Source: Delftia acidovorans NBRC 14950 (GTDB lineage: Bacteria; Pseudomonadota; Gammaproteobacteria; Burkholderiales; Burkholderiaceae_C). Taken from it: a stretch of DNA of 32,000 bases. Shown here in pieces: positions 1,251 through 24,463 of the stretch. A model generated the notes under the pieces. The model was not told where the DNA came from, did no database searches, and worked only from the letters and a program-made list of their open reading frames with translations. The stretch lies in NCBI RefSeq assembly GCF_001598795.1, contig NZ_BCZP01000016.1, forward strand, positions 90,001 to 122,000. Direction: 5' to 3'. A program made the position numbers and the translations under genes. Every line of letters starts with the position of its first letter. The stretch's first letter is position 1.

Positions 1251-2243
1251 GTGAAGAAGATCAAGACACTGCGGCCCGCCATGACGGTGCTGGCCTTGGG
1301 TATTGGGGCGGGGCTGGGCCTGTTCCAGGGCACGCTGCATGCGGCCGACTATCCGGCCGCGCAGGCCATCACGGTCGTCGTGCCGTTCTCGGCCGGTGGC
1401 GGTGCGGACAATGCGGCGCGCATCATCGCCAAGGCGCTGGGCGAGGTCTCGGGCCAGACCGTGGTGGTGGACAACAAGGCCGGCGCCAGCGGCGCCATTG
1501 GTGCCGCCCTCGTGGCGCGCGCCAAGGCCGATGGCTATACGGTGCTGTATGACGCATCGTCCTTCGCCATCAACCCCGCGTTGCGCAAGCTGCCCTATGA
1601 CCCGGCCAAGGACTTCATTGCCGTGTCCCAGGCCATCAGCGTGCCCAACATCCTCGTGGCGGCGCCGTCCTCGCCCTACAACAGCCTGGCCGACTTCATG
1701 AATGCCGCGCGGCAAAAGCCCGGCAGGCTCACCTATGCCTCCTACGGTCCGGGCAGCCTGGCCCAGATGGCGACGGAACTGCTCAAGGCAGACGCCAAGT
1801 TCGATGCCGTCCACGTTCCCTACAAGGGTGGGGCGCCCGCCATCGTCGATGTCATGGGCGGCCAGGTCGATGTGTACTTTGCCAACGCGGCCTCCAGCAT
1901 CAACTACGTCAAGGGCGGCAAGCTCAAGGCGCTGGCCGTGTCCTCGGCCAAGCGCATGCCGGACCTGCCCGACGTGCCCACGGTGGCGGAAAGCGGCATC
2001 AAGGGCTTCGAGGTGACGGAGTGGAACGGCTTCTTCCTGCCTGCGGGTACGGCGCCCGAGACTGTGCAGAAGCTGCAGGACCTGGTGCAAAAGGCCCTGG
2101 CCTTGCCGGCCACGCGCGCCAGCCTTGAAAAGCTGGGCCTGACGCCGGTGGGCAGTTCCTCCGCCGCCTTCACGGGCTTCGTGGCGGCCGAGCGCAAGCG
2201 CTGGGATGCCGTGGTCAAGGCCAACGGCATCACCGTGCAGTGA
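1251..2243 (+). CDS. Bug/TctC-family tripartite tricarboxylate transporter substrate-binding protein (periplasmic)
   Basis: GTG start, with aggaga 10 nt upstream. Signal peptide ends ..GTLHA/ADYP. Bug-family motifs present: VVVPFSAGGGADN, YASYGPGS, HVPYKGGAPA. Confidence 0.9.
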   Translation: MKKIKTLRPAMTVLALGIGAGLGLFQGTLHAADYPAAQAITVVVPFSAGGGADNAARIIAKALGEVSGQTVVVDNKAGASGAIGAALVARAKADGYTVLYDASSFAINPALRKLPYDPAKDFIAVSQAISVPNILVAAPSSPYNSLADFMNAARQKPGRLTYASYGPGSLAQMATELLKADAKFDAVHVPYKGGAPAIVDVMGGQVDVYFANAASSINYVKGGKLKALAVSSAKRMPDLPDVPTVAESGIKGFEVTEWNGFFLPAGTAPETVQKLQDLVQKALALPATRASLEKLGLTPVGSSSAAFTGFVAAERKRWDAVVKANGITVQ

Positions 2244-2263
2244 GCCGCCGCGCGTGACGGGGC

Positions 2264-3409
2264 TCAGGGCGTGGCGGTGACGCGCAGCAACTGCCCGTCC
2301 TGGGCGTCCGTCAGCAGGTAAAGCCAGCCGTCCGGTCCCTGGCGGACATCACGGACGCGCTGGCCCAGGCGCGGCAGTACCTGCTCGCTGGCCGTTACCT
2401 TGCCGGACCTGACCGTCAGGCGCTCCAGCCTCTGGAACTTGAGCGAGCCCACGACCAGCGATCCCTTCCACTGCGGCCCATAGCGGTCACTGGTCACGAA
2501 GGCCATGCCCGATGGTGCAATCGAAGGCACCCAGTAGTGCTGTGGCTGCTCCATGCCCTCCTTGCGTGTGATGCCCGCGCCGATCTTGCCGCCGCCGTAG
2601 TTCTCGCCATGGGTGATCACGGGCCAGCCATAGTTCTTGCCCGCCTCGGGCCGGTTGACCTCGTCGCCGCCCTGCGGGCCGTGCTCATGCATCCACAGGC
2701 TGCCATCGGGCCCCAGCGCCGCGCCCTGGGCGTTGCGGTGGCCGTAGCTCCAGATCTCGGGCCTGGCATCTGCACGGCCCGCGAACGGGTTGTCCCCGGG
2801 CACGCTGCCATCCTTTGCGATGCGCACGATCTTGCCCAGGTGGCTTTTCAGGTTCTGGGCCTCTTCCTTGTAGCGCGAGCGTTCGCCCAGCGCCAGGAAC
2901 AACGTGCCATCGCTCTTTCCTTCCACCATGCGCTCAACGATGCGGCAGCCGAAATGCAGCGCGCTCGCGTACTTGGGGCGCTGCGAGAACAGTACTTTCA
3001 CCTGCTCCAGCCGGCTGGCATCGTCGGACAGCCGCGCGCTGGCCAGCGCCGTGCTGTTCTTGCTGCTGTCGGCGCCGCTGCCGGGCTCGGAGTAGCAGAA
3101 GTACAGCTGGCGGTTGCGCGCGAAATCGCTGTCCAGCACCACGTCCAGCAGGCCGCCCTGGCCTGCGGCCTCCACGGCCGGAAGGCCTGCCAGAGGAGCG
3201 CCCAGCCTTCCGTCGCCCTGCACGATGCGCATGCGGCCCGGCCGCTCGGTCACCAGGTGGCGCCCATCCGGCAGGAAAGCCACGGCCCAGGGATGCTCCA
3301 GGCCTTCGGCGACGATTTCGGTGGAGAGGTTGGGGCTGCCGGCGGCCCACAGTGCACCGGACAGGCCCAGGGTGCTGATGCCGATGGCGGCGGATAGGGA
3401 TGGCGGCAT
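2264..3409 (-). CDS. PQQ-dependent sugar dehydrogenase (soluble aldose/sorbosone dehydrogenase, YliI-like), secreted
   Basis: Motifs [41 protein letters not shown]. The start was set at the internal ATG 3409 ([22 protein letters not shown]), which gives a signal peptide. The longer ORF-track start is 3487. Confidence 0.85.
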
Positions 3410-3442
3410 GCCGATGTTCCTGTGAAGAGGGGGCAAGAGGGA

Positions 3443-3472
3443 CGCCCGACTGCGCTGCAGCGCAGTCGGGCG
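3443..3472. repeat. Perfect 30-bp palindrome (13-bp arms around tgca)
   Basis: cgcccgactgcgc tgca gcgcagtcgggcg. It lies 34 bp upstream of the dehydrogenase ATG, in the divergent intergenic region. Confidence 0.9.
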
Positions 3473-3537
3473 GCTTTGATCTGGCAAACATCATGCACGA
3501 CGCGGCCAGAGCCAGCGGCGCCCTGTCAACCACTGCG

Positions 3538-3566
3538 CAAAAAGCCCGCGCAGCCACTTGCGCGGG
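3538..3566 (-). terminator. Intrinsic-terminator-like hairpin oriented on the minus strand, with no minus-strand gene upstream of it
   Basis: Stem cccgcgca (3545-3552) / tgcgcggg (3559-3566) with a 6-nt loop. On the minus strand it is followed by CTTTTTGCGC. Confidence 0.4.
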
Positions 3567-3664
3567 TGTATAAACAGCGCTCTTTCGGCGCCGGGCCGGG
3601 TCCCTGCGTGGGGCGGTCGGCGGCGCCTCCTACCCACCAGAGAATCCGCAAGGGAAAAGCAGCC

Positions 3665-4366
3665 ATGGGCGCGCAATGGAAAGCAAAGGGCAAGGCGCTG
3701 GTCGCCGATGCCAAGGGAAAGCTGTTTGGCAAGCTGGCCAAGGAAATCATCGTCGCGGCGCGCGCCGGCGCCGATCCGGCAGGCAACTCGCGCCTGCGCA
3801 TGGCCGTGGAAGCCGCCCGCAAGGCCTCCATGCCCAAGGACACGCTCGAGCGTGCGATCAAGAAGGGCTCGGGCGTGGGTGCCGACGCCGTCAACTACGA
3901 GCGCGTGGTCTATGAAGGCTACGGCCCCAACCGCGTGCCCGTGATGATCGAGTGCCTGACCGACAACGTGAACCGCACGGCGCCCAACATGCGCGTGTGT
4001 TTCCGCAAGGGCCAGATGACGGCCGTGGCCTGGGACTTCGACCATGTGGGCATGATCGAGGGCGAGCCCGAAGGCGGTGCCGATGCCGAGCTGGCCGCCA
4101 TCGAGGCCGGCGCACAGGACTTCGAGCCCGGCGAGGAAGAGGGCACGACGCTGTTCATCACCGACCCGACGGACCTGGATACCGTGAGCAAGGCGCTGCC
4201 GGCCCAGGGCTTCAAGGTGCTGTCGGCCAAGCTGGGCTACAAGGCCAAGACGCCGGTCAGCATGGCCAGCCTGTCGGCCGAGCAGCAGGAGGAAGTGCAG
4301 GACTTCCTGGCCGGCATCGAGAACGATGATGACGTGCAGCACGTCTACGCGGGCCTGGTGGATTGA
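3665..4366 (+). CDS. YebC/PmpR-family protein, divergent paralogue (YeeN-like N-terminus)
   Basis: [10 protein letters not shown]..., [33 protein letters not shown], and the C-terminal DDDVQHVY motif. ATG 3665 was chosen over the ORF-track start 3422. Confidence 0.85.
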
Positions 4367-4390
4367 TCCCGCTGCCCCCCGCTCCCAAGC

Positions 4391-4419
4391 AAAAAAGCCG
4401 CACGATGTGCGGCTTTTTT
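4391..4419. terminator. Bidirectional rho-independent terminator between the convergent YebC paralogue and upp
   Basis: aaaaaa gccgcac gat gtgcggc tttttt: a 7-bp GC stem flanked by an A-run and a T-run. Confidence 0.8.
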
Positions 4420-4438
4420 GTGGGTGCGTGCACCAAGC

Positions 4439-5068
4439 CTACTTGGTGCCGAAGATGCGGTCGCCCGCGTCGCCCAGGCCCGGCAGGATGTAGCCGTGCG
4501 CGTCCAACTGGCGGTCCACGGCGGCCGTGTAGATGTCCACGTCGGGATGGGCCTTTTGCATGGTGGCCACGCCTTCGGGCGCGGCCAGCAGGCACATGAA
4601 CTTGATGGACTTCGGGTTCAGCTGCTTCAGGCGCGCCACGGCGGCGGCTGCCGAGTTGCCCGTGGCCAGCATGGGATCGACGACCAGCACGTCGCGCTCT
4701 TCCATCTCGGAAGGCATCTTGAAGTAGTACTCGACGGGCTGCAGCGTCTCGGGGTCGCGGTACAGGCCGATGTGGCCGATGCGCGCACCGGGCACAACAT
4801 TGAGCATGCCGTCGAGGAAACCGTTGCCGGCGCGCAGGATGGACACCAGCACCAGCTTCTTGCCGTCGATGACCTTGCCGGTCATGGTCTCCAGCGGGGT
4901 CTCGATCTCGATGTCCTGCAGCGGCATGTCGCGCGTGATCTCGTAGGCCATCAGCGTGGACAGCTCGCCCAGCATGCGGCGAAAGCTGTTGGTGCTGGCT
5001 TCCTTGCGGCGCATCAGCGTGAGCTTGTGTTGGACCAGCGGGTGGTCGATCAGGTGCAGAGTACTCAT
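4439..5068 (-). CDS. upp: Uracil phosphoribosyltransferase
   Basis: Full-length similarity by eye: [19 protein letters not shown] motif [14 protein letters not shown]-terminal [17 protein letters not shown]. Confidence 0.95.
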
Positions 5069-7854: not shown

Positions 7855-8574
7855 GTGGCAGGACACAGTAAATGGGCCAATATCCAGCACCGCAAAGGCC
7901 GCCAGGACGAAAAGCGTGGCAAGGTCTGGACCCGCATCATCCGTGAAATCATGGTGGCGGCACGCACGGGAGGGGGCGATCTCAGCGCCAACCCGCGCCT
8001 GCGCCTGGCGGTGGAAAAGGCCAAGGCGGCCAACATGCCGGCCGACAACATCAAGCGCAACATCGACAAGGCCACGGGCAACCTCGAAGGCGTGACCTAC
8101 GAGGAAATCCGCTACGAAGGCTATGGCATTGGCGGCGCGGCCATCATCGTGGACACCATGACCGACAATCGCGTGCGCACTGTGGCGGATGTGCGTCACG
8201 CCTTCAGCAAGTACGGTGGCAACATGGGCACGGAGGGTTCCGTGTCCTTCCAGTTCAAGCATGTCGGACAACTGATCTTCGCTCCCGGAAGCGACGAGGA
8301 CCAGATCATGGAAGTGGCTCTGGAGGCCGGCGCCGAGGACGTGATCACCGATGACGAGGGAGCCATCGAGGTGCTGACCGCACCCGCAGAGTTCGAAACC
8401 GTGCGCGACGCGCTGCAGGCCAAGGGCCTGACGCCGGAGGTGGCTGAAGTCACCATGCGCCCGGAAAACACCATCGCCCTGCAAGGCGATGACGCAGCCC
8501 GCATGCAAAAGCTGCTGGACATGATCGAAGACCTGGATGACGTACAGGACGTCTACCACAACGCTGAACTATGA
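7855..8574 (+). CDS. yebC: YebC/PmpR-family protein (canonical form)
   Basis: GTG start. [51 protein letters not shown]. Confidence 0.9.
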
Positions 8575-11889: not shown

Positions 11890-12357
11890 ATGAAACTGTT
11901 GATCGTGGCCGTGGGCCAGCATGTGCCCGACTGGGCGCAGACGGCCTACGACGACTATGCAAAGCGCTTTCCCCCGGAGCTCAAGGTGGAGCTCAAGGCC
12001 GTCAAGACCGAGCCGCGCGGCTCCAAGACGGTAGAGACCCTGTACGCGGCCGAGCGCAAGCGCATCGAGGCCGCCATTCCGCGCGGCACGCGCATCGTCG
12101 TGCTCGATGAGCGTGGCACCAATCTGACGACCAAGGCACTGGCCCAGCGCCTGCAGGGCTGGCAGCTGGAGGGCGACGACGTGGCCCTGATCATCGGCGG
12201 CCCGGACGGACTGGACCCCGCCTTCAGGCAGGCTGCGCACGAGCGCATCCGCCTGTCGGACCTGACCCTGCCGCATGCCATGGTGCGGGTGCTGCTCATC
12301 GAGCAGCTGTACCGTGCCTGGTCGGTCAACGCCGGCCATCCCTACCACCGGGAATAG
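11890..12357 (+). CDS. rlmH: 23S rRNA (pseudouridine1915-N3)-methyltransferase (SPOUT)
   Basis: [46 protein letters not shown]. Confidence 0.9.
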
Positions 12358-12484: not shown

Positions 12485-13099
12485 ATGCCGCCATTCATCT
12501 ACCTTGCCTCCCAGAGCCCCCGCCGCCGCCAGCTGCTGGAGCAGCTGGGTGTGGCCCATGAGCTTTTGCTGCCCAACGCCGAGGGCGACATTGCCGAAGA
12601 TGCCGAGGCCATAGAGGCCGAACTGGCCGATGAGGCAGCGCGCGACTATGTGCAGCGCGTCACCGCGCTCAAGCTCGATGCCGCCGTGGCCCGCCATGCG
12701 CGCCGCGCCCTGGCTGTGGCGCCCGTGCTGTGCTCGGACACCACGGTGGCGCTGGATGGCCGCATTCTTGGCAAGCCTGCCGATGCCGACGATGCCCGCC
12801 GCATGCTGACCGCGCTTGCGGGCCGCGAGCACGAGGTGCTGACCGCCGTCGCCATACAGCACGGCGCGCGGCGCCTGGCTGCGCTGTCGGTGTCCCAGGT
12901 CTGCTTCTCGGCCATGAGCGCGCAGCAGATCGACGCGTATGTGGCCTCGGGCGAGCCCATGGGCAAGGCCGGCGCCTATGGCATACAGGGCCGCGCGGCG
13001 GCCCATGTGCAGTGGCTGCACGGCAGCTACTCGGGCATCATGGGCCTGCCGCTGTTCGAGACGGCGGCGCTGCTGCGCGAGCTGGGCTGGGCACTGTAG
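12485..13099 (+). CDS. maf: Maf-like nucleoside triphosphate pyrophosphatase
   Basis: [38 protein letters not shown]. Confidence 0.9.
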
Positions 13100-13260
13100 G
13101 CCGGCTCCCCGACCTTGGCCCGCAGGGGCGTGCAGGCATGCGCAGACCGCCGATGGCAGCGGATGGCGCGGCAAGATAGTGGCAAGCGGCCACCGGCGCA
13201 ATGATTGCCGGGCCGCCATGGCCGAGAAATACAAACGACAAAGCACACCACAGGCACAGC

Positions 13261-14748
13261 ATGCAGCAAGACATTCTGATCAATTGGTCGCCACAGGAAA
13301 CGCGCGTGGCCATCATCGAGAACGGCGCCGTCCAGGAGCTGCACATGGAGCGCCCGCTGGAGCGCGGCCTGGTTGGCAACGTCTATCTGGGCAAGGTCTC
13401 GCGTGTGCTGCCGGGCATGCAGTCGGCCTTCATCGACATCGGCCTGGAGCGCGCGGCCTTCCTGCATGTGGCCGATGTGTGGCAGCGGCAGGAAGGGGGC
13501 GAGGCCCCCATGTTCGCGCGCAAGGACATGCCTGTCGTGCCCATCGAAAAGCAGGTTTTCGAAGGCCAGACCATCATGGTGCAGGTCATCAAGGACCCGA
13601 TCGGCACCAAGGGTGCGCGCCTGTCCACGCAGATCAGCATTGCGGGGCGATTGCTGGTGCTGCTGCCCCAGGATGACCATATCGGCATCTCGCAGAAAAT
13701 CCCGCAGGGCGAGCGCGACGCGCTGCGCGCCCGCCTGCAGGGCCTGGTGGGCACCAAGGAAACCGGCGGGGGCGGCGGCTTCATCCTGCGCACCAATGGC
13801 GAGGATTCCAGCGACGCCGAGCTGGCCGACGACATCCGCTACCTGCGCAAGACCTGGAGCCGCATCAAGGACGCCTCGGTGCGCCTGCCGCCCATGTCGC
13901 TGCTGCACCAGGACCTGAACCTGCTGCAGCGCGTGCTGCGCGATCTGGTGGGCGAGGGCACGCAGAGCATCCGCATCGACTCCAAGGAGCAGTTCGCCCT
14001 GCTCATGACCTTCGGCCAGGAATACATGCCGGCGGCCGTGCCCAAGCTGCAGCACTACCGCGGCGAGCGGCCCATCTTCGACCTCTTCGCCATCGACGAG
14101 GAAATCGCCCGTGCGCTGGGCCGCCGCGTGGATCTCAAGTCCGGCGGCTACCTGATCGTGGACCAGACCGAGGCGCTGACCACGGTGGACGTCAACACCG
14201 GCGGCTACGTGGGGGCGCGCAACTTCGACGACACCATCTTCAAGACCAACCTGGAAGCGGCCCAGCAGATTGCGCGCCAGCTGCGCCTGCGCAACCTGGG
14301 CGGCATCATCATCGTGGACTTCATCGACATGGTGCGGGACGACCACCAGGCCGAGGTGCTGTCCGAATTCAAGCGCCAGCTCGGGCGCGACCGTGTCAAG
14401 ACCATGGCGGGCGGTTTCTCGCAGTTGGGCCTGGTGGAGATGACGCGCAAGCGCACGCGGGAATCGCTGGCCCACATGCTGTGCGAATCCTGCCCGGTCT
14501 GCCAGGGCAAGGGCCATGTGAAGACCGTGCGCAGCGTCTGCTACGAGGTGCTGCGCGAAATCCTGCGCGAAGCGCGCCAGTTCAACCCGCGCGAGTTCCG
14601 CATCGTGGCCTCGCCCAAGGTGGTGGAGATGTTCCTGGACGAGGAAAGCCAGCACCTGGCAGGCCTGTCCGACTTCATCAAGAAGCCCATCTCGCTGCAG
14701 GCCGAGACAGCCATGGCACAGGAGCAATACGACATTGTGCTGCTGTGA
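13261..14748 (+). CDS. rng: Ribonuclease G
   Basis: S1 domain GNVYLGKVSRVLPGMQSAFIDIG; catalytic region TEALTTVDVNTG and GGIIIVDFIDM; zinc-link CxxC (CESCPVCQGKG). Start at ATG 13261 (MQQDILIN) rather than the ORF-track start 13201. Confidence 0.9.
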   Translation: MQQDILINWSPQETRVAIIENGAVQELHMERPLERGLVGNVYLGKVSRVLPGMQSAFIDIGLERAAFLHVADVWQRQEGGEAPMFARKDMPVVPIEKQVFEGQTIMVQVIKDPIGTKGARLSTQISIAGRLLVLLPQDDHIGISQKIPQGERDALRARLQGLVGTKETGGGGGFILRTNGEDSSDAELADDIRYLRKTWSRIKDASVRLPPMSLLHQDLNLLQRVLRDLVGEGTQSIRIDSKEQFALLMTFGQEYMPAAVPKLQHYRGERPIFDLFAIDEEIARALGRRVDLKSGGYLIVDQTEALTTVDVNTGGYVGARNFDDTIFKTNLEAAQQIARQLRLRNLGGIIIVDFIDMVRDDHQAEVLSEFKRQLGRDRVKTMAGGFSQLGLVEMTRKRTRESLAHMLCESCPVCQGKGHVKTVRSVCYEVLREILREARQFNPREFRIVASPKVVEMFLDEESQHLAGLSDFIKKPISLQAETAMAQEQYDIVLL

Positions 14749-14927
14749 ATCGGTATTTATCCTGCTAATTCATTATCAATAGCAGTCCATCTATTGGTGA
14801 ATGAATGTGTTCAATTGAACTCATTCTTGCATTGCTATGGATTGTTGATTCCCGATAATTAACTTTGTCTCGGCTTTTTTGATACTGTTTGTTGCAATCA
14901 GTGCCTCAGCAACTGAAAGGGCGACGA
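14749..14927 (+). promoter_or_regulatory. AT-rich intergenic region upstream of the LodA-like gene (probable promoter and regulatory region)
   Basis: About 38% G+C by hand count, against roughly 65% or more in the flanks. Contains a perfect 12-bp palindrome gttcaattgaac (14809-14820) and the inverted repeats ctgcta/tagcag and gttgc/gcaac. Confidence 0.5.
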
Positions 14928-16829
14928 ATGGGAATCGACTCCACCATTGTGCGTGCAGCCATACACCCGGGAATTGGTGTGGCGCGTATTGGCAATAGTC
15001 CGGATGAGTACTATGTCGGCCCCGAGCTGATGCATGTGCCGCCCATGGCGCCGGGCAGCCTGCGCGATGCGCAGGGCGCGCTCAAGCGGCAGGCGGCGCG
15101 CTTTCGCATCTACGGCTACAACGCTGCGGGCGAGGTGGTGCGTGAACTCACGGCCGACCAGGAGCAGATCGAATGGGAAGTCGAGCTGGCCAATACCAAG
15201 GCTGCCTGGTATCAATTCCAATTGGCGCTGGACGTGCCTGAAGCCGCAACGGCCGATCCCACGATTTTGCGCAATGCCACGGTGAAGGACCGGAAAAGCC
15301 TGGCCATTCGACCCGGAGCCCGCCGCATTGCCAAAGGCTCGGCCCCCGTGGCATTCGACAGCGGCAGTTTCTGCGGCAAGCCGGTTTATCTGGGCGAATT
15401 GCGCATTGAAAAGACGGGCCAGCTTCTCGTGCTGGGAGGCCGTGGCGTCTCTGCCTCCGTGGATGGCTCCAAGGCCACCACGTTTGCGAACAACGAGGGC
15501 TGGCATGACGATGTGGCCGACGGCCCCGTGCGCGCCAAGGTCGTCGTGGCCGGTGTTTCCGTGCCGGTGGATGCGGCATGGGTCACGGTTGCGCCGCCCA
15601 ACTACGGCCCGCAGATGAAGTCGGTGCGCACCATGAAGGACCTGATGGAGGATGTGTACATCCACTCGGGCATGGCCGCCTTCCCGCTGCACGTCTCCTT
15701 CAGCCGGCACATCCTGCCCATACTCCAGCGCCAGAGCAGCCTGCAGTGGGCGAACAAGGGCTTTGCATCCCAGTTCGGCTGGGGCGGGGCGGCCAATGCG
15801 GATGACGAGGTGTGGATCGCCAGGCTCAACAGCCCGGGCACGACCTGGGCCGAGCTGCGCCAGCAGGTGGCGAATGCCTTCCGGCGCTTTGACCGTGATG
15901 GCGCATCTCCCCAGCCCTGGCCCTGGCTGTATGGCGATGCCATGGCCGTGCCGCCCGTCGACACACCGCGCCAGCATGCGGCGCTGACGGCCACGCAGCT
16001 GAGGATGCTGGACCTGTGGGCCGGTGGCCATTTCCTGTCCGACTGGAAGCCCGGCCAGCAGTACCCTGCCCAGCTCGCCGACGTGCCGCTGCAGGAGCAG
16101 CCGGCCATGCTCGACCATGCCGCCATGGACGACTGCCTGGCCGACGCCTTCCATCCGGGCTGCGAGATCACCTGGCCCATGCGGCACGCCAGCATGTACC
16201 GGGCGCCGTTCCGCATCCGCGAGGCGGCAGTGAACCCGCCCGAGCTGCAGCTCTACGGCTCCCGGCTCACGCCTGCGGTGGCCCTGTCAGAGAGCGGGCC
16301 GCTGTATGCGCAGGTGGCCGGCGACCTCACGCGCTGGATGGCGGTCCCCTGGCAGACCGACACCGCCAGCTGCCGCAGCGGCTATTACGCCGGCTATGGC
16401 CCACGCTACGACCCCTACCTGCCCACGTTCTGGCCAGCCCGCGTGCCCAACCAGGTGCTGACGCAGGAGGCCTATGAAAGGGTCATCAACGCCGAACTGC
16501 CGCGCGAGCAGCGCGTTGCCGCCTTCAACCGCCGCGAGTCGTGGTTCCGCACACTGGGTGAGGAAGGCTATGAGAGCGAGATCAACCGCATGATCAGCCA
16601 CTTCGGTGACATGGGCGTCATCGAGAGTCGGCCCGGGGTGCGGGGCGACAAGGACTTCCCGCCGGTGATGCAGGTGGAAAACCGCATCGCCCCGGCGCCG
16701 TTGCACATGCTCAAGACTGCGGTGCAACCGGACGGGCAGGAAGTGCCTCCCCGCATCGAGCCCTTCGATGCAGACAACGAGCAGCAGTTGCGCGCCATGA
16801 CGCAGCGCGGCCCGGTGCTGCCGCGCTGA
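14928..16829 (+). CDS. LodA/GoxA-family protein (predicted cysteine tryptophylquinone quinoprotein amino-acid oxidase), substrate unknown
   Basis: N-terminal AAIHPGIGVARIGNS, IEWEVELANTKAAWYQF, GQLLVLGGRG, GWHDDVADGPV, MAVPWQTDTASC and TFWPARVP match, from memory, conserved blocks of Marinomonas LodA. ATG 14928 has aaaggg 8 nt upstream. The ORF-track TTG at 14889 was not used. Confidence 0.72.
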   Translation: MGIDSTIVRAAIHPGIGVARIGNSPDEYYVGPELMHVPPMAPGSLRDAQGALKRQAARFRIYGYNAAGEVVRELTADQEQIEWEVELANTKAAWYQFQLALDVPEAATADPTILRNATVKDRKSLAIRPGARRIAKGSAPVAFDSGSFCGKPVYLGELRIEKTGQLLVLGGRGVSASVDGSKATTFANNEGWHDDVADGPVRAKVVVAGVSVPVDAAWVTVAPPNYGPQMKSVRTMKDLMEDVYIHSGMAAFPLHVSFSRHILPILQRQSSLQWANKGFASQFGWGGAANADDEVWIARLNSPGTTWAELRQQVANAFRRFDRDGASPQPWPWLYGDAMAVPPVDTPRQHAALTATQLRMLDLWAGGHFLSDWKPGQQYPAQLADVPLQEQPAMLDHAAMDDCLADAFHPGCEITWPMRHASMYRAPFRIREAAVNPPELQLYGSRLTPAVALSESGPLYAQVAGDLTRWMAVPWQTDTASCRSGYYAGYGPRYDPYLPTFWPARVPNQVLTQEAYERVINAELPREQRVAAFNRRESWFRTLGEEGYESEINRMISHFGDMGVIESRPGVRGDKDFPPVMQVENRIAPAPLHMLKTAVQPDGQEVPPRIEPFDADNEQQLRAMTQRGPVLPR

Positions 16830-18068
16830 GTGCCGGCCATGTCGTCGCACGCCATGGCCGCCGCGCCGCTGCCGGATGAACTGGATGTGCTCGTCGTGGG
16901 CGCAGGGCCGGCGGGCGCGGCCGTTGCCGCGCAGCTGGCAGGGCACTGCCGCGTGGCGCTGATAGGGCGTGCCGTGCAGGCTGGGCGGGCCATTGGCGAA
17001 ACCCTGCCCGCTGCGGCCCGGGTGATTCTGTCCGACCTGGGCGTGTGGGATGCGTTCGCGGCACAGGGCCACCGTCCTGCCTGGTCGCGGCGGTCATTGT
17101 GGGGAAGCTCCGAGGTCATCTTTCAGGACGCGCTGTTCGACCCGCATGGTGCGGGCTGGCACCTGGACCGTGCGCGCTTCGACGCCATGCTGCTGGAGGC
17201 TGCGCGCAGCCGTGGCGTGCCCTGCCTGGTGCCCGCCACGCTGCGCAGCATGCAGCGCCAGCCACCGGGCGCACCCATGCGCTGGCGCTGCCTGATCGAT
17301 AGGGCGCAGGGCGACACGGCGCATGGCCCGTTGGAGCTGTCCTGCCGCATCGTGGTCGATGCCACGGGCCGCGCGGCCCGCGTGGCCCGGCAGGCGGGCG
17401 CCCAGGTCCACCGTGGTGGCCGCCTGGTCTGCTTTCACGCCTGGGTGGAGCCGCCATCGCATGAGCATGCAGGCACCACCATGATCGAGTCGGATGCCGA
17501 AGGCTGGTGGTACAGCGCTGACCTGCCCGATGGCAGTTGCGTGATTGCCTGGCAGACCGACATCGATCTGCCTGAAGCCCGGCGCCTGCTCAGCACGGCC
17601 GATCTGTTGGAAATGGCGCATCACACGGCCCTGGTGGGCGCGCGCAGCAGGGGCAGCCGGGTGCTGGAGCCGCTGCGCGTGGCCGCCGCCCACGAACAAT
17701 GGCTTGATGCAGCCAGCGGGCCTGACTGGCTGGCCGTGGGCGATGCAGGCCTGTCCTTCGATCCGCTGGCATCGCAGGGCCTGCTCAACAGCCTGGTCAC
17801 GGGCAGCGAGGCCGCCCTGGCCGTGCGCCGCAGTCTGGCGGGCGATGCCGATGCGCTGCCGTCCTGGAATGCGTGGATCGGCACGATACGCGCCGCGTAC
17901 CGCACCCACCACCAGCACTACTACGCGCTGGAGCAGCGCTGGGCGGCCGAGCCGTTCTGGACCCGCCGCCAGCAGGCTCCGGAGGCAGGGATCGGAGCCG
18001 ACGTTACTGCCGCTCCAACTTCGCCGTCTGCACGATCGCATTCCAGCGCTGGTACTCGGCCCGCGTGA
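16830..18068 (+). CDS. LodB-like FAD-dependent flavoprotein (predicted CTQ-maturation partner)
   Basis: It starts directly after the LodA-like stop, at GTG 16830 or ATG 16839. It has the dinucleotide-binding fold DVLVVGAGPAGAAVAAQLA. Size and position match the lodA-lodB / goxA-goxB arrangement. Confidence 0.62.
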   Translation: MPAMSSHAMAAAPLPDELDVLVVGAGPAGAAVAAQLAGHCRVALIGRAVQAGRAIGETLPAAARVILSDLGVWDAFAAQGHRPAWSRRSLWGSSEVIFQDALFDPHGAGWHLDRARFDAMLLEAARSRGVPCLVPATLRSMQRQPPGAPMRWRCLIDRAQGDTAHGPLELSCRIVVDATGRAARVARQAGAQVHRGGRLVCFHAWVEPPSHEHAGTTMIESDAEGWWYSADLPDGSCVIAWQTDIDLPEARRLLSTADLLEMAHHTALVGARSRGSRVLEPLRVAAAHEQWLDAASGPDWLAVGDAGLSFDPLASQGLLNSLVTGSEAALAVRRSLAGDADALPSWNAWIGTIRAAYRTHHQHYYALEQRWAAEPFWTRRQQAPEAGIGADVTAAPTSPSARSHSSAGTRPA

Positions 18069-18996
18069 ATTCGCGGAAGGCCTTGGAGTCCAGCAGGCGC
18101 ACTTCGCCGCCCAGTGCCGTCACCTTGGACTTGAAGTCGGCATGGCCCGCCACCTTGAGCGTGGCATCCTCCAGCCGCTTGACGATGGCGGCCGGCGTGC
18201 CCTTGGGTGCCAGCACGCCGTTCCAGGTGCCGGTCACGAAGGTGGGGTAGCCGCTTTCCTTCATGGTCGGCACATCGGGCAGGGCGGGCAGGCGCTGCTC
18301 GGAGGTCACGGCCAGGGCCTTGAGCTTGCCCGACTGCACGAAGGGCAGGGCGGGCGTCACGTTCTCGAAGATGAAATCGATCTGGCCGCCCAGCAGGTCG
18401 GTCAGGGCCGGCGCGCTGCCCTTGTAGGGCACATGCACCATGTCCAGCTGGGTGGCGCTCTTGAACAGCTCGCCCGACAGGTGGACCGTGGAGCCGCTGC
18501 CCGGCGAGCCATAGCTCATGCCGGTCTTTTGCGCGGCGGCGCGTGCCACCAGGTCCTTCACCGTCCTTGCGGGCGTGCGCGTCTCGTTGACGACCAGCAC
18601 ATTGGGAATGGTGGTCACCAGGGCCACGTACTCGAAATCGCCCAGGCTCTTCTCGCTCAGGTTCTTGTACAGGCTCTGGTTGATGGCCTGGGTGCCGGCC
18701 GTGCCGAACAGCAGCGTGTAGCCATCATTGGCCGCCGAAGCCACGCGACTGGCGCCGATGGAGCCGTTGGCGCCGGAGATGTTTTCCACGATCACGGGCT
18801 GGCCCAGCGATTCGGACAGGCCCTGCGCCACCATGCGCGCCAGCACATCGGTATTGCCGCCAGGGGCGAAGGGCACGACCAGCTTGACGGGCCGGGTGGG
18901 ATAGGCATCCGCCCAGGCCTGGGGCAGGGGCAGCAGCGTGGCGCCGAGCAGCGCGGCAGCGCGCAGGAATTGCTTGCGTGAAAGGGTGCGGGGCAT
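18004..18996 (-). CDS. Bug/TctC-family substrate-binding protein (periplasmic)
   Basis: Start at ATG 18996, with aggaga 7 nt upstream. Signal peptide MPRTLSRKQFLRAAALLGATLLPLPQAWA. Motifs LVVPFAPGGNTD and HVPYKGSAPA. Confidence 0.9.
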   Translation of the reverse strand: MPRTLSRKQFLRAAALLGATLLPLPQAWADAYPTRPVKLVVPFAPGGNTDVLARMVAQGLSESLGQPVIVENISGANGSIGASRVASAANDGYTLLFGTAGTQAINQSLYKNLSEKSLGDFEYVALVTTIPNVLVVNETRTPARTVKDLVARAAAQKTGMSYGSPGSGSTVHLSGELFKSATQLDMVHVPYKGSAPALTDLLGGQIDFIFENVTPALPFVQSGKLKALAVTSEQRLPALPDVPTMKESGYPTFVTGTWNGVLAPKGTPAAIVKRLEDATLKVAGHADFKSKVTALGGEVRLLDSKAFREFTRAEYQRWNAIVQTAKLERQ

Positions 18997-19398
18997 GGGG
19001 GATGTCTCCTTGTCGGTGTTTTTGGTGGCGCAGCGGCTGCGGCCGGCGGCGGATTTTTCAGGCGGGCCAATGCTGGGCGGTGGCTGTCTTGACGTCAATC
19101 AATGTTTTGGCAGGACGTCATGCGGCGGGCGAATGACCTGTTCGTCCTTGCTCGGAAAATGAGAATGGATTGCACCGGCGTGCGCTCTTCATGGCTCCTG
19201 CAACCACGGCGCAAGCCTCCTGGACCCGCCCATGAACAAGGTCCGCACCCTCTCCTGCATCCGCCCCCGTCGCTGCCAACTGCCCGCATCCATGCGGCTT
19301 TGCGGCTCCTGCCTGCACCTGCACGGTGCGCCCCATGGCGTGGGCCGGCGCCCGCCGAGGCACCGGGGTGGGGTGGGCATTGCCGATGCCGATACAGC

Positions 19399-21627
19399 TT
19401 AGAAATCCGCCTTCAGGCTCACCGTCAGATTGCGCGGCTCGCCCCACCAGCCCTGGTTGTAGAAGCCGATCTGGCTGTAGTACTGGCGGTCCAGCACGTT
19501 GTTGAGCTGCACGCTGGCCGACCAGGTGGGGTCGATGCGGTAGTGGGCCGAGAGGTTGACCACCAGGTAGCTGCCCTGGCCGACCTGCACGCTCTGGCGC
19601 AGCGGGTTGGTCACGTTCTGCCAGATGCGGCTTTGCCAGCGCAGGTTGCCGCCCAGGCTCAGGCCCCGAAGCGCACCCTCGAAGCTGCGCATGGCCGTGA
19701 GCTTGACCAGGCTGCGCGGGTGCGTGGTGTTGAAGGCGGCGCCGCTGGCGCTGCGTGCCGTGTAGTGCGTGTAGCTGGCGCCCATGCGCCAGCCCCGGGC
19801 CGGCTCGCCGCTGAGTTCCAGATCGATGCCGCGCACCTGCGCGCCCTTGACGCCGCGATAGGCCTTCTGGTCTGTGGTGCCGTCGATGAATTCGCCCGTG
19901 TCCTGCGCCAGATTGTCCTGGCGGGTCTGGAACAGCGCGGCAGAACCCTGCAGCCGGTCCTGCAGCCAGGAGCCCTTGAGGCCCAGCTCGAAGGCCTGGC
20001 CGGTGACGGGGTCCAGGATGCTGCCTTGCTTGTCGCGGTAGTTCTGGGGCGTGAAGATTTCCGTGTAGCTCAGGTAGGCCGTATGCCGGGCATCGATGTC
20101 CCACAGCAGGCCGGCGTAGGGCGTGATTTCGTTGCTGTAGCGGTAGTCGCGCAGGCTGCCGAAGTAGTTCTGGCGCGTGGACCAGCGGCTCAGGCGGGCG
20201 CCGGCCACGGCCGTCCAGCCATCGGCCAGCGAGAAACGCCCCACGGCATAGCCGCCGCTTTGGCGCATGCGGCTGTCGTCGCCGCCGTTGGAGACGTCGG
20301 ACCAGCCAGGCTCGGCCAGGCTGCCGTTGCGCCAGTCGAGGAAGTTGTCCGTGGCAGGCGGCGTGCCCAGCGGTGCGTAGCGGCGGATGTCGATGTCGTC
20401 GCGCACATGGTTCCATCCCACGGCAATCTCGTGCTGACGCCCGAACAGCGCGACCGGGCCGCTGGCCGTGAGGTGCAGGCTGTCGCGCGAGCGGTCACCC
20501 CGGTATTTGATGAAGGAGTTGGCCATGCCCAGGCCGGTGGTGGCGTCCGGCGCGCCGCCCCGGTAGACGTAGCGCATGTCGTAGTTGCCTTCGTTGCGGC
20601 TGTAGGCGGCGCGCAGCAGCCAGCGGTTGTCCAGGCGGTGCGTCAGGTCCAGCGTGGCCGTGGTGTTCTCGGTGCCGAAATGCGACCAGCGCGTGTTGTT
20701 GGATACCGAGCGGTCGAAGTCCGTGCGGCTGCCGTCCGCATAGAACAGCGGAAAGCCGGCGCCCATGCCGGGACTGGTGTTCTTCTGGTATTCGAGGCTG
20801 GTCACGAGCCGCGTGGCGGGCGTCAGGGCCGCGCTGACCACGGCATACAGGCCCTGCCTGCGCTGGCCAAAGTGGCTGACGTAGCTATCGCTATCCGATT
20901 GCACGGCCACGACGCGGCCATGCACGCGGCCTTTGCGGTCCAGCGGCAGGGACAGATCGGCCTCGGCGCGGCGCAGGTTCCAGCGGCCAAGCGTCAGCGA
21001 GGCATGGCCGCCCGCCGTCTCGCGCGGCTGCTTTCGCACGAAGTTCACCGTGGCCGACGGATCGCCCGAGCCATTGAGCAGGCCCGTGGCGCCGCGCACG
21101 ATTTCCACGCGGTCGTAGAAGGCCGTGTCCATGTCGGTGGCGCCGAAGTTCCACAGGCTGTTGATGGGCGAGGCCAGCCCGTCGAACTGGAAGTTGCTGA
21201 CGCCAAAGCCGCGCGAGGAAAACTGGTAGCGGTTGCTGTCGCTGCGGCTGACCGACAGGCCGGGGGCGGAGGCCTCCAGCGTCTGCGAGACCGTGAGCTG
21301 GCCGGCATCGTCCATGAGCTGGCGCGTAATCACGCTGACCGACTGCGGTGTCTCGCGCGCCGACAGTTGCAGGCCCGTGGCCGTGCCTGTGGCGCCGCTG
21401 GTGTAGCGCGCCGTGCCTTCGGTGGTACCCGCATCGGCGGCGGCGCGCACGGTGACGGTGCCCAGTTCGGTGTCGCCTTTCCTGGCAGGGGGCCTGTCCT
21501 CGTCGGCGGCCCAGACTGCTGGCGCAGGGGCTGCACAAAGTGCACAGATCAGCAGGGACAGCGGGGTCCGCGCGCCTTGGGGGTGTCGGGGGGTGGGGTT
21601 TTGAATGCGAATGCTCATCATTTCCAT
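19399..21627 (-). CDS. TonB-dependent siderophore receptor
   Basis: Plug motifs ETPQSVSVITRQLMDD and RGFGVSNFQFDGL, a long beta-barrel, and a terminal ..SLKADF. Start set at MEMMSIR (21627); nearby in-frame ATGs at 21621 and 21618 are also possible. No FecA-type N-terminal signalling domain is evident. Confidence 0.9.
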   Translation of the reverse strand: MEMMSIRIQNPTPRHPQGARTPLSLLICALCAAPAPAVWAADEDRPPARKGDTELGTVTVRAAADAGTTEGTARYTSGATGTATGLQLSARETPQSVSVITRQLMDDAGQLTVSQTLEASAPGLSVSRSDSNRYQFSSRGFGVSNFQFDGLASPINSLWNFGATDMDTAFYDRVEIVRGATGLLNGSGDPSATVNFVRKQPRETAGGHASLTLGRWNLRRAEADLSLPLDRKGRVHGRVVAVQSDSDSYVSHFGQRRQGLYAVVSAALTPATRLVTSLEYQKNTSPGMGAGFPLFYADGSRTDFDRSVSNNTRWSHFGTENTTATLDLTHRLDNRWLLRAAYSRNEGNYDMRYVYRGGAPDATTGLGMANSFIKYRGDRSRDSLHLTASGPVALFGRQHEIAVGWNHVRDDIDIRRYAPLGTPPATDNFLDWRNGSLAEPGWSDVSNGGDDSRMRQSGGYAVGRFSLADGWTAVAGARLSRWSTRQNYFGSLRDYRYSNEITPYAGLLWDIDARHTAYLSYTEIFTPQNYRDKQGSILDPVTGQAFELGLKGSWLQDRLQGSAALFQTRQDNLAQDTGEFIDGTTDQKAYRGVKGAQVRGIDLELSGEPARGWRMGASYTHYTARSASGAAFNTTHPRSLVKLTAMRSFEGALRGLSLGGNLRWQSRIWQNVTNPLRQSVQVGQGSYLVVNLSAHYRIDPTWSASVQLNNVLDRQYYSQIGFYNQGWWGEPRNLTVSLKADF

Positions 21628-21695
21628 GGTCCTGGGCGTGAGCCCGGATTGTGGGAAATGTGTGCCGCCGCCGCCTGTTCCCGGCGACGCCAGTC

Positions 21696-22658
21696 CTATG
21701 GTTTGCGACGCAGGCTGCCTTGGCTGGGCGCGTGGCCGAAGCGCTGGCGAAAGGCCGTGGCGAAATTGCTGGCGTGCTGAAAGCCCACGCAGTCGGCCGC
21801 TTCCTGCACGCTCCAGCCCTGTGCCAGCCGCTCGCGCGCCAATTGCATGCGGCGCTCGCGCAGCCAGCCGAACACGGTCTGGCCGTAGGCGGCCTGGAAT
21901 TTCTCGCGCAGCGTGGTCGGGCTCATGCAGGCCAGGCGCGCCAGGTCGTCCAGGCTGTGCGCCTGGCCCGGCGCCGCATCCATGCACTCGCGCACGCGCT
22001 CCAGGCCGCGCCTGTCCCGGGGATGGATGCGCGGCGAGGGCGCAGGCCGCGGCTGCGCATGTGCCTGCAGCGCGCAGGCCAGCACCTGCAGCGCAATGCC
22101 TTCGCGGTGCAGCCGGGCCAGGCTGCCGCTCCAGACGCCATCGAGCAGCTGGCGCAGCGACACCGCCAGATGCTCGGGCAGCGACCAGGCATGCAGCGGC
22201 GGGCCGGACTGCTGCAGGGCGTGGTGCAGCAGCTCGGCCAGTTCGGCATCGGCGCAGGCCTCGGGTGCCTCGATGGACAGGTTGAAGCCACGCACCCTCT
22301 GGCCTGCCGCATGGGTGGCCTTGAGCACCTCGGTGTCGCCGCAGGAGAATGCCGCTGCGGCATGGCGCGTTACGCTCAGGGCCTTGCGGGCGGCGGGCAG
22401 CTGCAGCTCGGCCTGGCCGTCCAGCAGGACCACGGCGGTGAAGCGCCGCGGGTGCTCGGACGTGGATTCATAGCCATGGTTGATGCGGATGTCGGAACTG
22501 ACCAGCTGCAGGCCCGAAGGCAGTTGGTGCTCCTGCACCTGGCCTTCGAAGATGCAATCGTTTTCGGAGACGGTGGAGAGAAAGCGCACGCTGAAACCGT
22601 GGCGCTGGCGCATGGCGTCGAGCTGCGCCGTGGTGTAGCGCTGGGAAGGGGCGGGCAT
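21696..22658 (-). CDS. AraC-family transcriptional regulator (PchR/YbtA-like position upstream of a receptor gene)
   Basis: C-terminal double HTH: LDDLARLACMSPTTLREKFQAAYGQTVFGWLRERRMQLARERL ... GFQHASNFATAFRQRFG. Start at ATG 22658 rather than the ORF-track start 23009. Confidence 0.85.
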   Translation of the reverse strand: MPAPSQRYTTAQLDAMRQRHGFSVRFLSTVSENDCIFEGQVQEHQLPSGLQLVSSDIRINHGYESTSEHPRRFTAVVLLDGQAELQLPAARKALSVTRHAAAAFSCGDTEVLKATHAAGQRVRGFNLSIEAPEACADAELAELLHHALQQSGPPLHAWSLPEHLAVSLRQLLDGVWSGSLARLHREGIALQVLACALQAHAQPRPAPSPRIHPRDRRGLERVRECMDAAPGQAHSLDDLARLACMSPTTLREKFQAAYGQTVFGWLRERRMQLARERLAQGWSVQEAADCVGFQHASNFATAFRQRFGHAPSQGSLRRKP

Positions 22659-22699
22659 GGGCGGAGGCGGAAAGGCGGTGGCGGGAAGCGCTCGCTGCA

Positions 22700-22718
22700 G
22701 TGAACGCTTCTCATTATC
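22700..22718 (-). promoter_or_regulatory. Fur-box-like sequence upstream of the AraC regulator
   Basis: Minus strand reads GATAATGAGAAGCGTTCAC, matching 14 of 19 positions of GATAATGATAATCATTATC. It is the only AT-rich patch in the 110-bp spacer, 42 nt upstream of the ATG, and is flanked by cgctgcag on both sides. Confidence 0.35.
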
Positions 22719-22768
22719 GCTGCAGGCTTGCTCCGGCCCTGCGCCGTCCAGCCCGCAGATGCGCAGGC

Positions 22769-24463
22769 TCAGGGCAGGGCGCAGACAAAGCTGGCCGCAT
22801 CCTCCACATTGCCCGTGCCGGCGGCTGCGCCCTCGAACCTGTACCTGGCAATCTTCGGATACGGGCACAGCGGGCGCGTGCGCTGCGGAAAGTCCGCGCT
22901 GGACGGCAGGGCCCTGGCGGCGATGGTGTCCGGGGCGACGCCTTTCTCCACCCAGTCGACCATGGCCTGTATGGAGTCGAAGCTGTCCGTGGCCGGGCCG
23001 CCCGAGCAATGGTTCATGCCCGGCACGAGGAAGGTGCGCGCAAAGTCCTGCGTGGCCTGCATGCCGCCGTTGTTGGCGGCCAGGCGCTCGTAGTAGTCCA
23101 GCGTGTCCAGCGCCGAGAAGATGGGGTCGGACATGCCGTGGATGAAGAGCATCTTGCCGCCGTGCTGCCGGAAGGCCGTGAGCCGGTCATCCCGGTAGGT
23201 GTCATAGATGGCCGAGTAGGCCTGCATGCGCGCCGGGTCGGTGTCGAAATTGAAGGCCAGCGGGTTGAAGCCCAGGTCTGGCGGGGTGAGGAATTCGTTG
23301 ACCAGCGCATCCACGATCAGCGTGATGTAGCGCGAATCCGGCGTGGCGGTGGTGGAGCTGCCCAGTGTCCAGGTGCGCCAGCCCGGCGCTGCCAGGCCCG
23401 GATCCCACGGCTGGCCCGCATACAGGGCCTGGCCTGCCGAGTTGCGCGGCCCGGCAAACACGTTTCTGAGCGCGTTCACCTGTCCGCTGCTCAGGCAGCT
23501 GCCGGTCTTGGCGCCGCCGCACTGCAGCACGCCGGGGTCGAAATGGCAGGCCTTGACGTGGTTCACCATGCCATCGGCCACGCCGTCGGCCGCATCGCAG
23601 GAGGCGGTCACGGCCTTGGCCACCAGGTTCAGGTCCTCGTTGCTGAAGGCCCGGGAGAGGATGCGCCGACCGCTGCTGTCGGCCGGCGCGATGGCATCGA
23701 ACTCGATGGTGTTCCACATCGCGGCCACCGTGGCGCCGCTCGATACCCGCATGGCAGGGGCGCCGGCCGTGATGGCGTCGAAGTAGTCGGGAAAGCGCTG
23801 CGAGAACACCATGCCCTGCCGCCCGCCACCCGAGCAGCCTGAAAAATAGGAGTGCTCAGGCTTGCGCCCGTAGCGCGTGGAGATCAGTGATTTGGCCGCC
23901 ACGGCGGTCTTGTCGTAGGCGTTGTAGGCGTGGTCCAGCCGGGCCTGAGGGTCGGCACCGAAGCTGGCCGTGGTGCCGGTGTGGCCCGCGTCGGTGGAGA
24001 CCACCGCAAAGCCCTGGCCCAGCGGCGAAGGCGTTGCGCCAGAGATGCTGGAGCTCAGCGAGGTGTCGCGCAGGATGCCGTCGTTGCCACCGCCGCCGAT
24101 GAAGAGAAACCGGCCGTTCCATTGGTCCGGCAGGCTGAGCTGGAACCCGATGGCGTAGTTCTTGCCGTCCACGCCCACGCGCGGGTTGATGGCGCCGGTG
24201 ACTACGCAGTGCCCGGGCAGCAGCGCGCCGGTGCTGGCGCCGCCCGGCCTGCGGGTGTCGGGCGGCACATAGCTGGTGGACAGCCGGGTGGCCGCAAGGC
24301 CTGCCCTGTCAGGCAGGTCGGCGCAGGCGGCCGCCTGCGTTGCGGCATCGGCCAAAGTGGGGCTGCTGCCACCGCCGCAGCCCGCCATGAGAAGGGATGC
24401 GGCAAAGGCGGCCGTGGATGGAAAAACGCGCCGCAAGGCGCGTGGGGCGTGGTCGATTCGCAT
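22769..24463 (-). CDS. Tannase/feruloyl-esterase-family alpha/beta hydrolase, predicted lipoprotein
   Basis: Lipobox LLMAGC (Cys29). Nucleophile motif FSGCSGGGRQG (Cys210-Ser211) and C-terminal PGMNHCSGG, together the Cys-Ser...His-Cys signature of this family. aggaga lies 7 nt before the ATG. Confidence 0.85.
   Translation of the reverse strand: MRIDHAPRALRRVFPSTAAFAASLLMAGCGGGSSPTLADAATQAAACADLPDRAGLAATRLSTSYVPPDTRRPGGASTGALLPGHCVVTGAINPRVGVDGKNYAIGFQLSLPDQWNGRFLFIGGGGNDGILRDTSLSSSISGATPSPLGQGFAVVSTDAGHTGTTASFGADPQARLDHAYNAYDKTAVAAKSLISTRYGRKPEHSYFSGCSGGGRQGMVFSQRFPDYFDAITAGAPAMRVSSGATVAAMWNTIEFDAIAPADSSGRRILSRAFSNEDLNLVAKAVTASCDAADGVADGMVNHVKACHFDPGVLQCGGAKTGSCLSSGQVNALRNVFAGPRNSAGQALYAGQPWDPGLAAPGWRTWTLGSSTTATPDSRYITLIVDALVNEFLTPPDLGFNPLAFNFDTDPARMQAYSAIYDTYRDDRLTAFRQHGGKMLFIHGMSDPIFSALDTLDYYERLAANNGGMQATQDFARTFLVPGMNHCSGGPATDSFDSIQAMVDWVEKGVAPDTIAARALPSSADFPQRTRPLCPYPKIARYRFEGAAAGTGNVEDAASFVCALP

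Follow-up and report, generated by a model that had tools for sequence, protein, structure and literature searches.

LodA of Marinomonas mediterranea (group IA; structures 2YMW and 3WEU) is the founding member of the LodA-like family of quinoproteins and an L-lysine epsilon-oxidase, and the other characterised members are the glycine oxidases GoxA of M. mediterranea (Marme_1655, group IIB) and of Pseudoalteromonas luteoviolacea (PlGoxA; structures 6BYW and 6EER). Every LodA-like protein has a Cys and a Trp at the positions of LodA C516 and W581, the family is described as a two-gene lodA-lodB module, and in the LodA system LodB is required for formation of the cofactor, cysteine tryptophylquinone (CTQ) (PMC4417212). 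Here we analyse a pair of genes of this type in a stretch of 32,000 nucleotides (nt) from Delftia acidovorans NBRC 14950 (contig NZ_BCZP01000016.1, positions 90,001 to 122,000), referred to as the window, whose own numbering is used throughout. The two genes very probably constitute a self-contained operon dedicated to a LodA-like quinoprotein of group III that oxidises amines or amino acids, a reading carried by family membership, conserved cofactor and active-site residues, fold, pairing with a flavoprotein gene and purifying selection.

The initial annotation of this locus, made from the DNA letters and their open reading frames (ORFs), had recognised the product of the first gene by six motifs of LodA. 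All six were found in the order given, at residues 13, 81, 166, 192, 474 and 501 of the 633-amino-acid (aa) protein, and searches with the LodA N- and C-terminal domain models, a check proposed at the time, put the resemblance beyond chance (Pfam E=4.3e-82 and 5.8e-38; Table 1). The only solved proteins matched by sequence were P. luteoviolacea GoxA (about 1e-37) and M. mediterranea LodA (about 1e-32). In the HMMER alignment to PlGoxA, which ends at PlGoxA residue 717, before Y766 and H767, the segment WMAVPWQTDTASC…PTFWPARVP of the Delftia protein lies opposite WMGIPWQSDAASC…PSWWAANLP, and five PlGoxA residues have counterparts in the Delftia protein (Table 1). Among these, the conserved Asp (D478) stands four residues ahead of the Cys (C482), as expected for the LodA-like family. 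When 51 homologues of 54-95% identity were aligned, C482, W502, D478 and H409 were invariant and F186 was conserved in at least 90%. The PlGoxA positions F316, H583 and D678 are those mutated in deposited structures (D678A/E/N, H583C and F316A, among the Protein Data Bank (PDB) entries found by Foldseek). Where the Delftia protein has Phe and His, LodA has Tyr211 and Cys448. The spacing of the Cys and Trp that form CTQ also differs from that of LodA, in which C516 and W581 are 65 residues apart (PMC4417212), compared with 20 in the Delftia protein.

An AlphaFold2 model built on the same 51-homologue alignment had a predicted template modelling score of 0.87 and a mean predicted local distance difference test (pLDDT) of 81. 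Comparison of this model with the PDB by Foldseek gave 50 matches at E<=0.001, all 50 of them GoxA or LodA and none from another family, with template modelling (TM) scores of about 0.72-0.73 to GoxA (PlGoxA, 6BYW) and about 0.62 to LodA (3WEU/2YMW). The Delftia protein has in common with LodA the two-domain architecture, the CTQ-forming Cys and Trp, a downstream LodB partner and the lack of a classical signal peptide. GoxA is its best solved relative (TM 0.73) and, beyond the five conserved residues, resembles it in the few residues that separate Cys and Trp and in the flavoprotein maturase encoded downstream, but identity to it is 20-22% and the 816-aa PlGoxA has large insertions that are absent from the Delftia protein. 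Neither equivalog model for the characterised enzymes was passed (GoxA, NF038173: 398.1 bits, cut-off 750; LodA, NF038172: 177.3 bits, cut-off 600). On these comparisons the 633-aa protein is assigned to the LodA/GoxA family as a predicted CTQ-dependent oxidase that is an equivalog of neither.

The second gene starts 0-9 nt after the stop codon of the first, exactly as initially described. The ATG used by RefSeq gives 409 aa (WP_034398471.1, named FAD-dependent monooxygenase; FAD, flavin adenine dinucleotide), and an alternative GTG at 16830, the base right after the lodA TGA, gives 412 aa; the length of 410 aa first reported for the protein is therefore not reproduced, whereas its GxGxxG FAD fold is present at residues 24-29. 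With the NCBIfam models, LodB (226.1 bits) and GoxB (214.5 bits) were the top two of 29 families, followed by QhpG (155 bits), the next family scoring 66. As the LodB and GoxB scores are under the equivalog cut-offs of 400, membership can be assigned at family level only. The PDB relatives of the flavoprotein were flavin-dependent halogenases and the peptidyl-tryptophan dihydroxylase QhpG (7CTQ, 5e-10), which belongs to the other CTQ system, that of quinohemoprotein amine dehydrogenase (QHNDH). Both systems make CTQ, but the target of QhpG is a small, separately cross-linked subunit whose still unmodified Trp receives both oxygens, and that of LodB and GoxB is the large oxidase itself, with a Trp that is already mono-hydroxylated (PMC7876137); no QHNDH subunit genes are present in the window. 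We read the second gene as encoding a LodB/GoxB-type flavoprotein, for which the role of maturase is a prediction. One public record names this partner 'lycopene cyclase family protein'.

The pairing of the two genes was followed through 80 loci containing the closest relatives of the oxidase, taken from one genome per species (loci are numbered with the prefix L). In 75 of them the oxidase gene was immediately followed by a lodB-like gene on the same strand, and four of the five exceptions were contigs that end at the oxidase gene. The only real exception was L023, an Acidobacteriota contig from a metagenome-assembled genome (MAG), in which 2.4 kb downstream of a fused catalase-LodA ORF (1814-4732) contains no lodB-like gene. 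Together with the ranking of the LodB and GoxB models, this bears out the lodA-lodB or goxA-goxB arrangement originally proposed. Clustering of all ORFs of at least 100 aa from the 80 loci returned as recurring clusters only lodA, lodB and antisense shadow ORFs inside both, any other cluster occurring in at most six loci. As only lodA and lodB recur, the pair constitutes a self-contained two-gene module. A clue to the substrate was also sought in the gene context and was rejected, there being no conserved neighbour besides lodB in the 80 loci. In one of these loci, that of Ramlibacter sp. WS9, a second, divergent lodA/lodB pair (L005, 11113-14081, minus strand; 28% and 35% identity to the window proteins) immediately adjoins the first on the opposite strand.

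Within Delftia, the gene order rlmH-maf-rng-lodA-lodB-bug-TonB receptor is fixed (L001 and L081-L083), and D. acidovorans, D. tsuruhatensis and additional Delftia contigs all have the pair at this site. Between the window and D. tsuruhatensis, the ratio of nonsynonymous to synonymous substitution rates (dN/dS) was 0.11 for lodA and 0.30 for lodB, with dS comparable to that of the flanking genes. Both genes are thus under purifying selection and have been passed on vertically since the divergence of the two Delftia species. Relatives at 68-71% identity (Hydrogenophaga, Ramlibacter and MAGs) have only the pair in common with the window, in unrelated contexts, and the GC content at third codon positions (GC3) is slightly lower in the pair (lodA 0.83, lodB 0.81) than in most neighbours (0.85-0.90); both observations fit an older acquisition of the pair as a cassette. 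In a quick neighbour-joining tree, calculated without support values, the Delftia protein falls in a clade of unfused betaproteobacterial sequences.

The same observations could be taken to mean that the locus is a decaying or functionless cassette acquired horizontally, since the pair moves without its flanks, differs in GC3 and encodes proteins that diverge faster than the flanking ones; a related idea, which recalls that CTQ is found also in the dehydrogenase QHNDH (PMC11951088), is that the enzyme is a dehydrogenase that uses an acceptor other than O2 and makes no H2O2. We regard both as very improbable. Both ORFs are intact with all catalytic residues present, the dN/dS values are those of genes under constraint, the site and the leader upstream of the pair are conserved across D. 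acidovorans, D. tsuruhatensis and further Delftia contigs, and the 90% identity cluster of the oxidase contains 311 sequences. As for the dehydrogenase, no linked cytochrome or other electron-acceptor gene was found in the 80 loci.

The placement of the protein within the published LodA-like phylogeny, which had also been proposed as a check, leads to group III. Daci_3528 (633 aa, group III) and Daci_3529 (409 aa, COG0644) of D. acidovorans SPH-1 are listed in Tables S1 and S2 of Campillo-Brocal et al. (2015), which also include the matching genes of strains CCUG 15835 and CCUG 274B (633-aa proteins of group III) and of Delftia sp. Cs1-4; Delftia is given there as 'III' without a subgroup, and Marme_2396 and the Acidovorax avenae proteins as IIIB (PMC4417212). 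Over its LodA region, STAFG_1983 of Streptomyces afghaniensis (the 999-aa ORF of L054), named as a group III protein in the same survey (PMC4417212), shares 57% identity with the window protein. STAFG_1983 likewise fails both equivalog models, with 437.7 bits for GoxA and 218 bits for LodA. From these comparisons the Delftia protein is assigned to LodA-like group III, the clade of Daci_3528, STAFG_1983 and Marme_2396, in which a lodB-like gene is again found directly downstream.

It follows that the novelty of the locus was overrated in the initial annotation, in that the pair was catalogued in 2015 and its oxidase is correctly named in RefSeq; the identification of the pair as LodA/LodB-type is supported in substance. 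The exact 633-aa sequence is present in RefSeq under the family name (WP_034393060.1), in the 90% cluster of 311 members mentioned above. The family itself is moderately large, with 2,690 clusters at 50% identity that match at E<=0.001, 818 of them at E<=1e-30. Older and public records in the cluster of WP_034393060.1 bear the wrong or over-specific names 'putative valyl-tRNA synthetase' and 'L-lysine 6-oxidase'. In the literature searched we found no experimental work on Daci_3528, Daci_3529 or a Delftia LodA, and no substrate assigned to group III, in agreement with what had been stated initially.

The substrate is probably neither L-lysine nor glycine. For lysine, the idea that the enzyme is an L-lysine epsilon-oxidase derives from the name 'L-lysine 6-oxidase' borne by some GenBank and UniProt entries of the 90% cluster and from Pfam domains that are named after LodA. 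Such names are automatic transfers, as the 'valyl-tRNA synthetase' of the same cluster illustrates, and the LodA equivalog score is far from its cut-off (177 against 600 bits), the fold match to LodA is weaker than that to GoxA (0.62 against 0.73), and lysine oxidase activity is shown for group IA only, having gone undetected in cultures of the tested organisms with group IB, IC and ID proteins (PMC4417212). We give this possibility next to no credence.

Of the known substrates glycine is the likeliest, since the protein resembles GoxA in its score profile and in the Phe and His of the active site. The GoxA model scores 398 bits against 177 for the LodA model, PlGoxA ranks first in the sequence comparison as well as in the fold comparison, F316 and H583 of PlGoxA are kept as F186 and H409, and the spacing of 20 residues between Cys and Trp is close to the 15 of PlGoxA (C682 to W697), all of which would be expected of a glycine oxidase functionally orthologous to GoxA despite its different phylogenetic group. 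However, 398 bits is about half of the cut-off of 750, the identity to PlGoxA is as low as stated above, the protein is placed in group III and not group II, and it lacks the twin-arginine translocation (Tat) motif carried by groups IIA and IIB (PMC4417212). F186 and H409 are conserved throughout the clade and therefore do not discriminate between substrates. In addition, M. mediterranea without its lod and gox operons has neither lysine nor glycine oxidase activity though the group IIIB gene Marme_2396 is kept, an argument that is weak in that expression of Marme_2396 was not shown. A glycine oxidase thus seems improbable to us, if less so than a lysine oxidase.

By analogy with LodA and GoxA, from which the steps of biogenesis and catalysis expected here are drawn (PMC7876137, PMC4417212, PMC11951088), the 633-aa protein would be made as an inactive precursor in which W502 is first mono-hydroxylated, a step for which autocatalysis with participation of the conserved Asp (here D478) has been proposed in LodA and GoxA (PMC7876137). 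The co-translated LodB-like flavoprotein would then add the second oxygen and drive the thioether cross-link between C482 and W502 to give CTQ. In the mature enzyme a primary amine would bind to CTQ as a Schiff base, an aldehyde or keto product and ammonium would be released, and re-oxidation of the enzyme by O2 would yield H2O2. No signal peptide or Tat peptide was found in the 633-aa protein, in line with the initial annotation, and LodA_N, which begins at residue 13, leaves no space for a signal peptide; in a longer reading from a TTG codon (…KGRRMGIDSTIVRAAIHPGIG) there is no hydrophobic region ahead of the domain either. The protein may consequently act in the cytoplasm or exit by a non-classical route. 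LodA itself is reported to leave the cell by such a route.

Several points weigh against the identification of the pair as an operon for a CTQ-dependent oxidase. Group III has no characterised protein, so that the cofactor, the oxidase activity and H2O2 release are all extrapolated, and it is from the characterised relatives that we infer the cofactor chemistry and H2O2 release of the Delftia enzyme. In the AlphaFold2 model pLDDT falls below 50 in the loops of H409 (residues 407-411) and of C482-W502 (residues 482-504), and the proximity of the Cys and Trp cannot be read from it. The second protein scores under the cut-off of 400 with both the LodB model and the GoxB model, its best solved relatives are halogenases, and its gene evolves faster than its neighbours (91% amino-acid identity to D. 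tsuruhatensis, compared with 98-100%). The weakness of the M. mediterranea argument touches the same reading on the side of the substrate.

An alternative in-frame TTG at 14889 would extend the lodA-like ORF by 13 residues, but is unlikely to be the start because AAAGGG lies 8 nt ahead of the ATG at 14928 and RefSeq uses the 633-aa form. No ribosome-binding site was found ahead of either lodB start (16830 or 16839), and this, together with a lodB start 0-9 nt after the lodA stop, suggests that translation of lodB is coupled to that of lodA. The 65-nt overlap at the downstream edge of the unit recurs in other Delftia loci, and no terminator-like site was found between the lodB and Bug/TctC genes.

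The spacer ahead of the pair is AT-rich, as had been noted initially, with 38% GC compared with 65-71% in the neighbouring genes and 63-72% in the window. In five Delftia loci the proximal ~100 nt of this leader are nearly invariant and positions 14785-14831 are variable. The leader RNA folds better than shuffled sequences (z=-3.2), with a stem formed by a 10-nt inverted repeat in which 14844-14853 pairs with the start-codon region (14930-14939); the sole change in this stem among the five loci is one U·G to C·G, and the loci are too similar for covariation to be assessed. The 5' arm of the stem would be upstream of a transcript from the predicted -10 element, so the promoter and stem readings conflict, and neither is established. 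Rfam was searched without a match, at E<=1 for positions 14650-15000 and at the gathering score for the whole window. A riboswitch in the leader was accordingly rejected, and there is therefore no glycine or lysine riboswitch that would point to the substrate. A reading of the GATAAT/ATTATC elements in the spacer as Fur boxes was dropped after comparison by eye only, the match to the consensus being poor.

Table 1. Features of the lodA/lodB-like locus in the window. Amino-acid identity and dN/dS are for the window compared with D. tsuruhatensis.
Feature	Positions	Strand	Description	Amino-acid identity	dN/dS
rlmH	11890-12357		upstream of pair	100%	not listed
maf	12485-13099		upstream of pair
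rng	13201-14748		upstream of pair; NCBIfam RNase G 642 bits, cut-off 594	99%	0.03
AT-rich intergenic leader / promoter region	14749-14927	+	between rng and lodA-like gene; by GC content
Predicted promoter	14832-14859	+	sigma-70-like match, TTGCTA-16 nt-GATAAT
lodA-like gene	14928-16829	+	633 aa from ATG	95%	0.11
LodA_N domain	14964-15590	+	residues 13-221; Pfam 275.7 bits, cut-off 26.3
F186 codon	15483-15485	+	within LodA_N; motif TTFANN; aligns with PlGoxA F316
LodA_C domain	15963-16418	+	residues 346-497; Pfam 130.4 bits, cut-off 25
H409 codon	16152-16154	+	within LodA_C; motif AFHPGCE; aligns with PlGoxA H583
D478 codon	16359-16361	+	within LodA_C; aligns with PlGoxA D678
C482 codon	16371-16373	+	within LodA_C; aligns with PlGoxA C682
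W502 codon	16431-16433	+	aligns with PlGoxA W697; predicted quinone tryptophan of CTQ, cross-linked to C482
lodB-like gene	16839-18068	+	409 aa from ATG (RefSeq start); WP_034398471.1	91%	0.30
GxGxxG (GAGPAG)	16899-16916	+	residues 24-29; FAD-binding motif of lodB-like protein
GD motif	17739-17780	+	residues 304-317 of lodB-like protein; GDAGLSFDPLASQG
3'/3' overlap, lodB-like and Bug/TctC genes	18004-18068		65 nt, from ORF coordinates; downstream edge of unit
Bug/TctC binding-protein gene	18004-19098	-	convergent to lodB; Pfam TctC 6e-70	98%	0.08
TonB-dependent siderophore receptor gene	19399-21987	-	downstream of pair	98%	0.12

The flanking genes were those first named, rng and a Bug transporter gene (Table 1), and among the genes of the window none was found for a transposase, an integrase or any other mobility function, again as stated at the outset. 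Further downstream, the TonB-dependent receptor scores above the NCBI equivalog cut-off for FauA, the receptor for the siderophore alcaligin (969 bits, cut-off 900), and is adjoined by a gene for an AraC-family regulator (21696-23009, minus strand), an arrangement that recalls the alcaligin system of Bordetella; genes for alcaligin biosynthesis were not seen in the window. A tannase/feruloyl esterase gene lies at 22769-24463 (minus strand; Pfam Tannase 4.9e-122). Most of it (about 22714-24309) is missing from the D. tsuruhatensis locus L001, which is otherwise syntenic, and it thus resembles an insertion or deletion specific to the strain or species. At the other end of the window are two YebC/TACO1-family paralogues within 4 kb of each other (3422-4366 and 7855-8574, both on the plus strand), the first extended at its N terminus by about 85 aa, perhaps as an artefact of ORF calling.

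An antimicrobial or biofilm role of the oxidase would also be expected from the initial annotation, which cites such roles for the characterised members. Such roles are documented for group I proteins only (PMC4417212), nothing specific to the group III clade backs their transfer from groups I and II, and they should not be assumed for the Delftia protein, especially as it has no export signal.

A different function is brought to mind by the architecture of the relatives. In 43 of the 80 closest loci (within L014-L080, for example L054, 6954-8018), an N-terminal domain of about 350 aa with weak similarity to the 33-kDa catalase-related haem protein 3E4W (E=5e-4) is fused to the oxidase. This fusion is the pfam00199/y4iL-like architecture of Table 3 of Campillo-Brocal et al. 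(2015) (PMC4417212). A 2026 preprint (10.64898/2026.03.27.714854) calls it previously undescribed, although it is present in that table. Fused and unfused forms are interleaved in the quick tree; the Delftia protein is unfused, and no separate catalase-related gene or domain was found in the window (best tblastn E=0.09). It is conceivable, though on balance unlikely, that the group III enzymes, including the unfused one of Delftia, are intracellular CTQ oxidases that act on a different class of primary amines, and not H2O2-releasing antimicrobial amino-acid oxidases. If this were true, the fused haem domain would consume peroxide on the spot, either for self-protection or in a second peroxide-dependent reaction, and the LodA-like family would gain a third activity and a new, coupled quinone-haem chemistry.

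The locus therefore represents an experimental opportunity in a known family and not a discovery in sequence. Group III has been without an assigned substrate since the third Marinomonas member was flagged in 2013, and Delftia, which is culturable and genetically tractable and whose pair is compact, unfused and present in single copy, would lend itself well to finding it.

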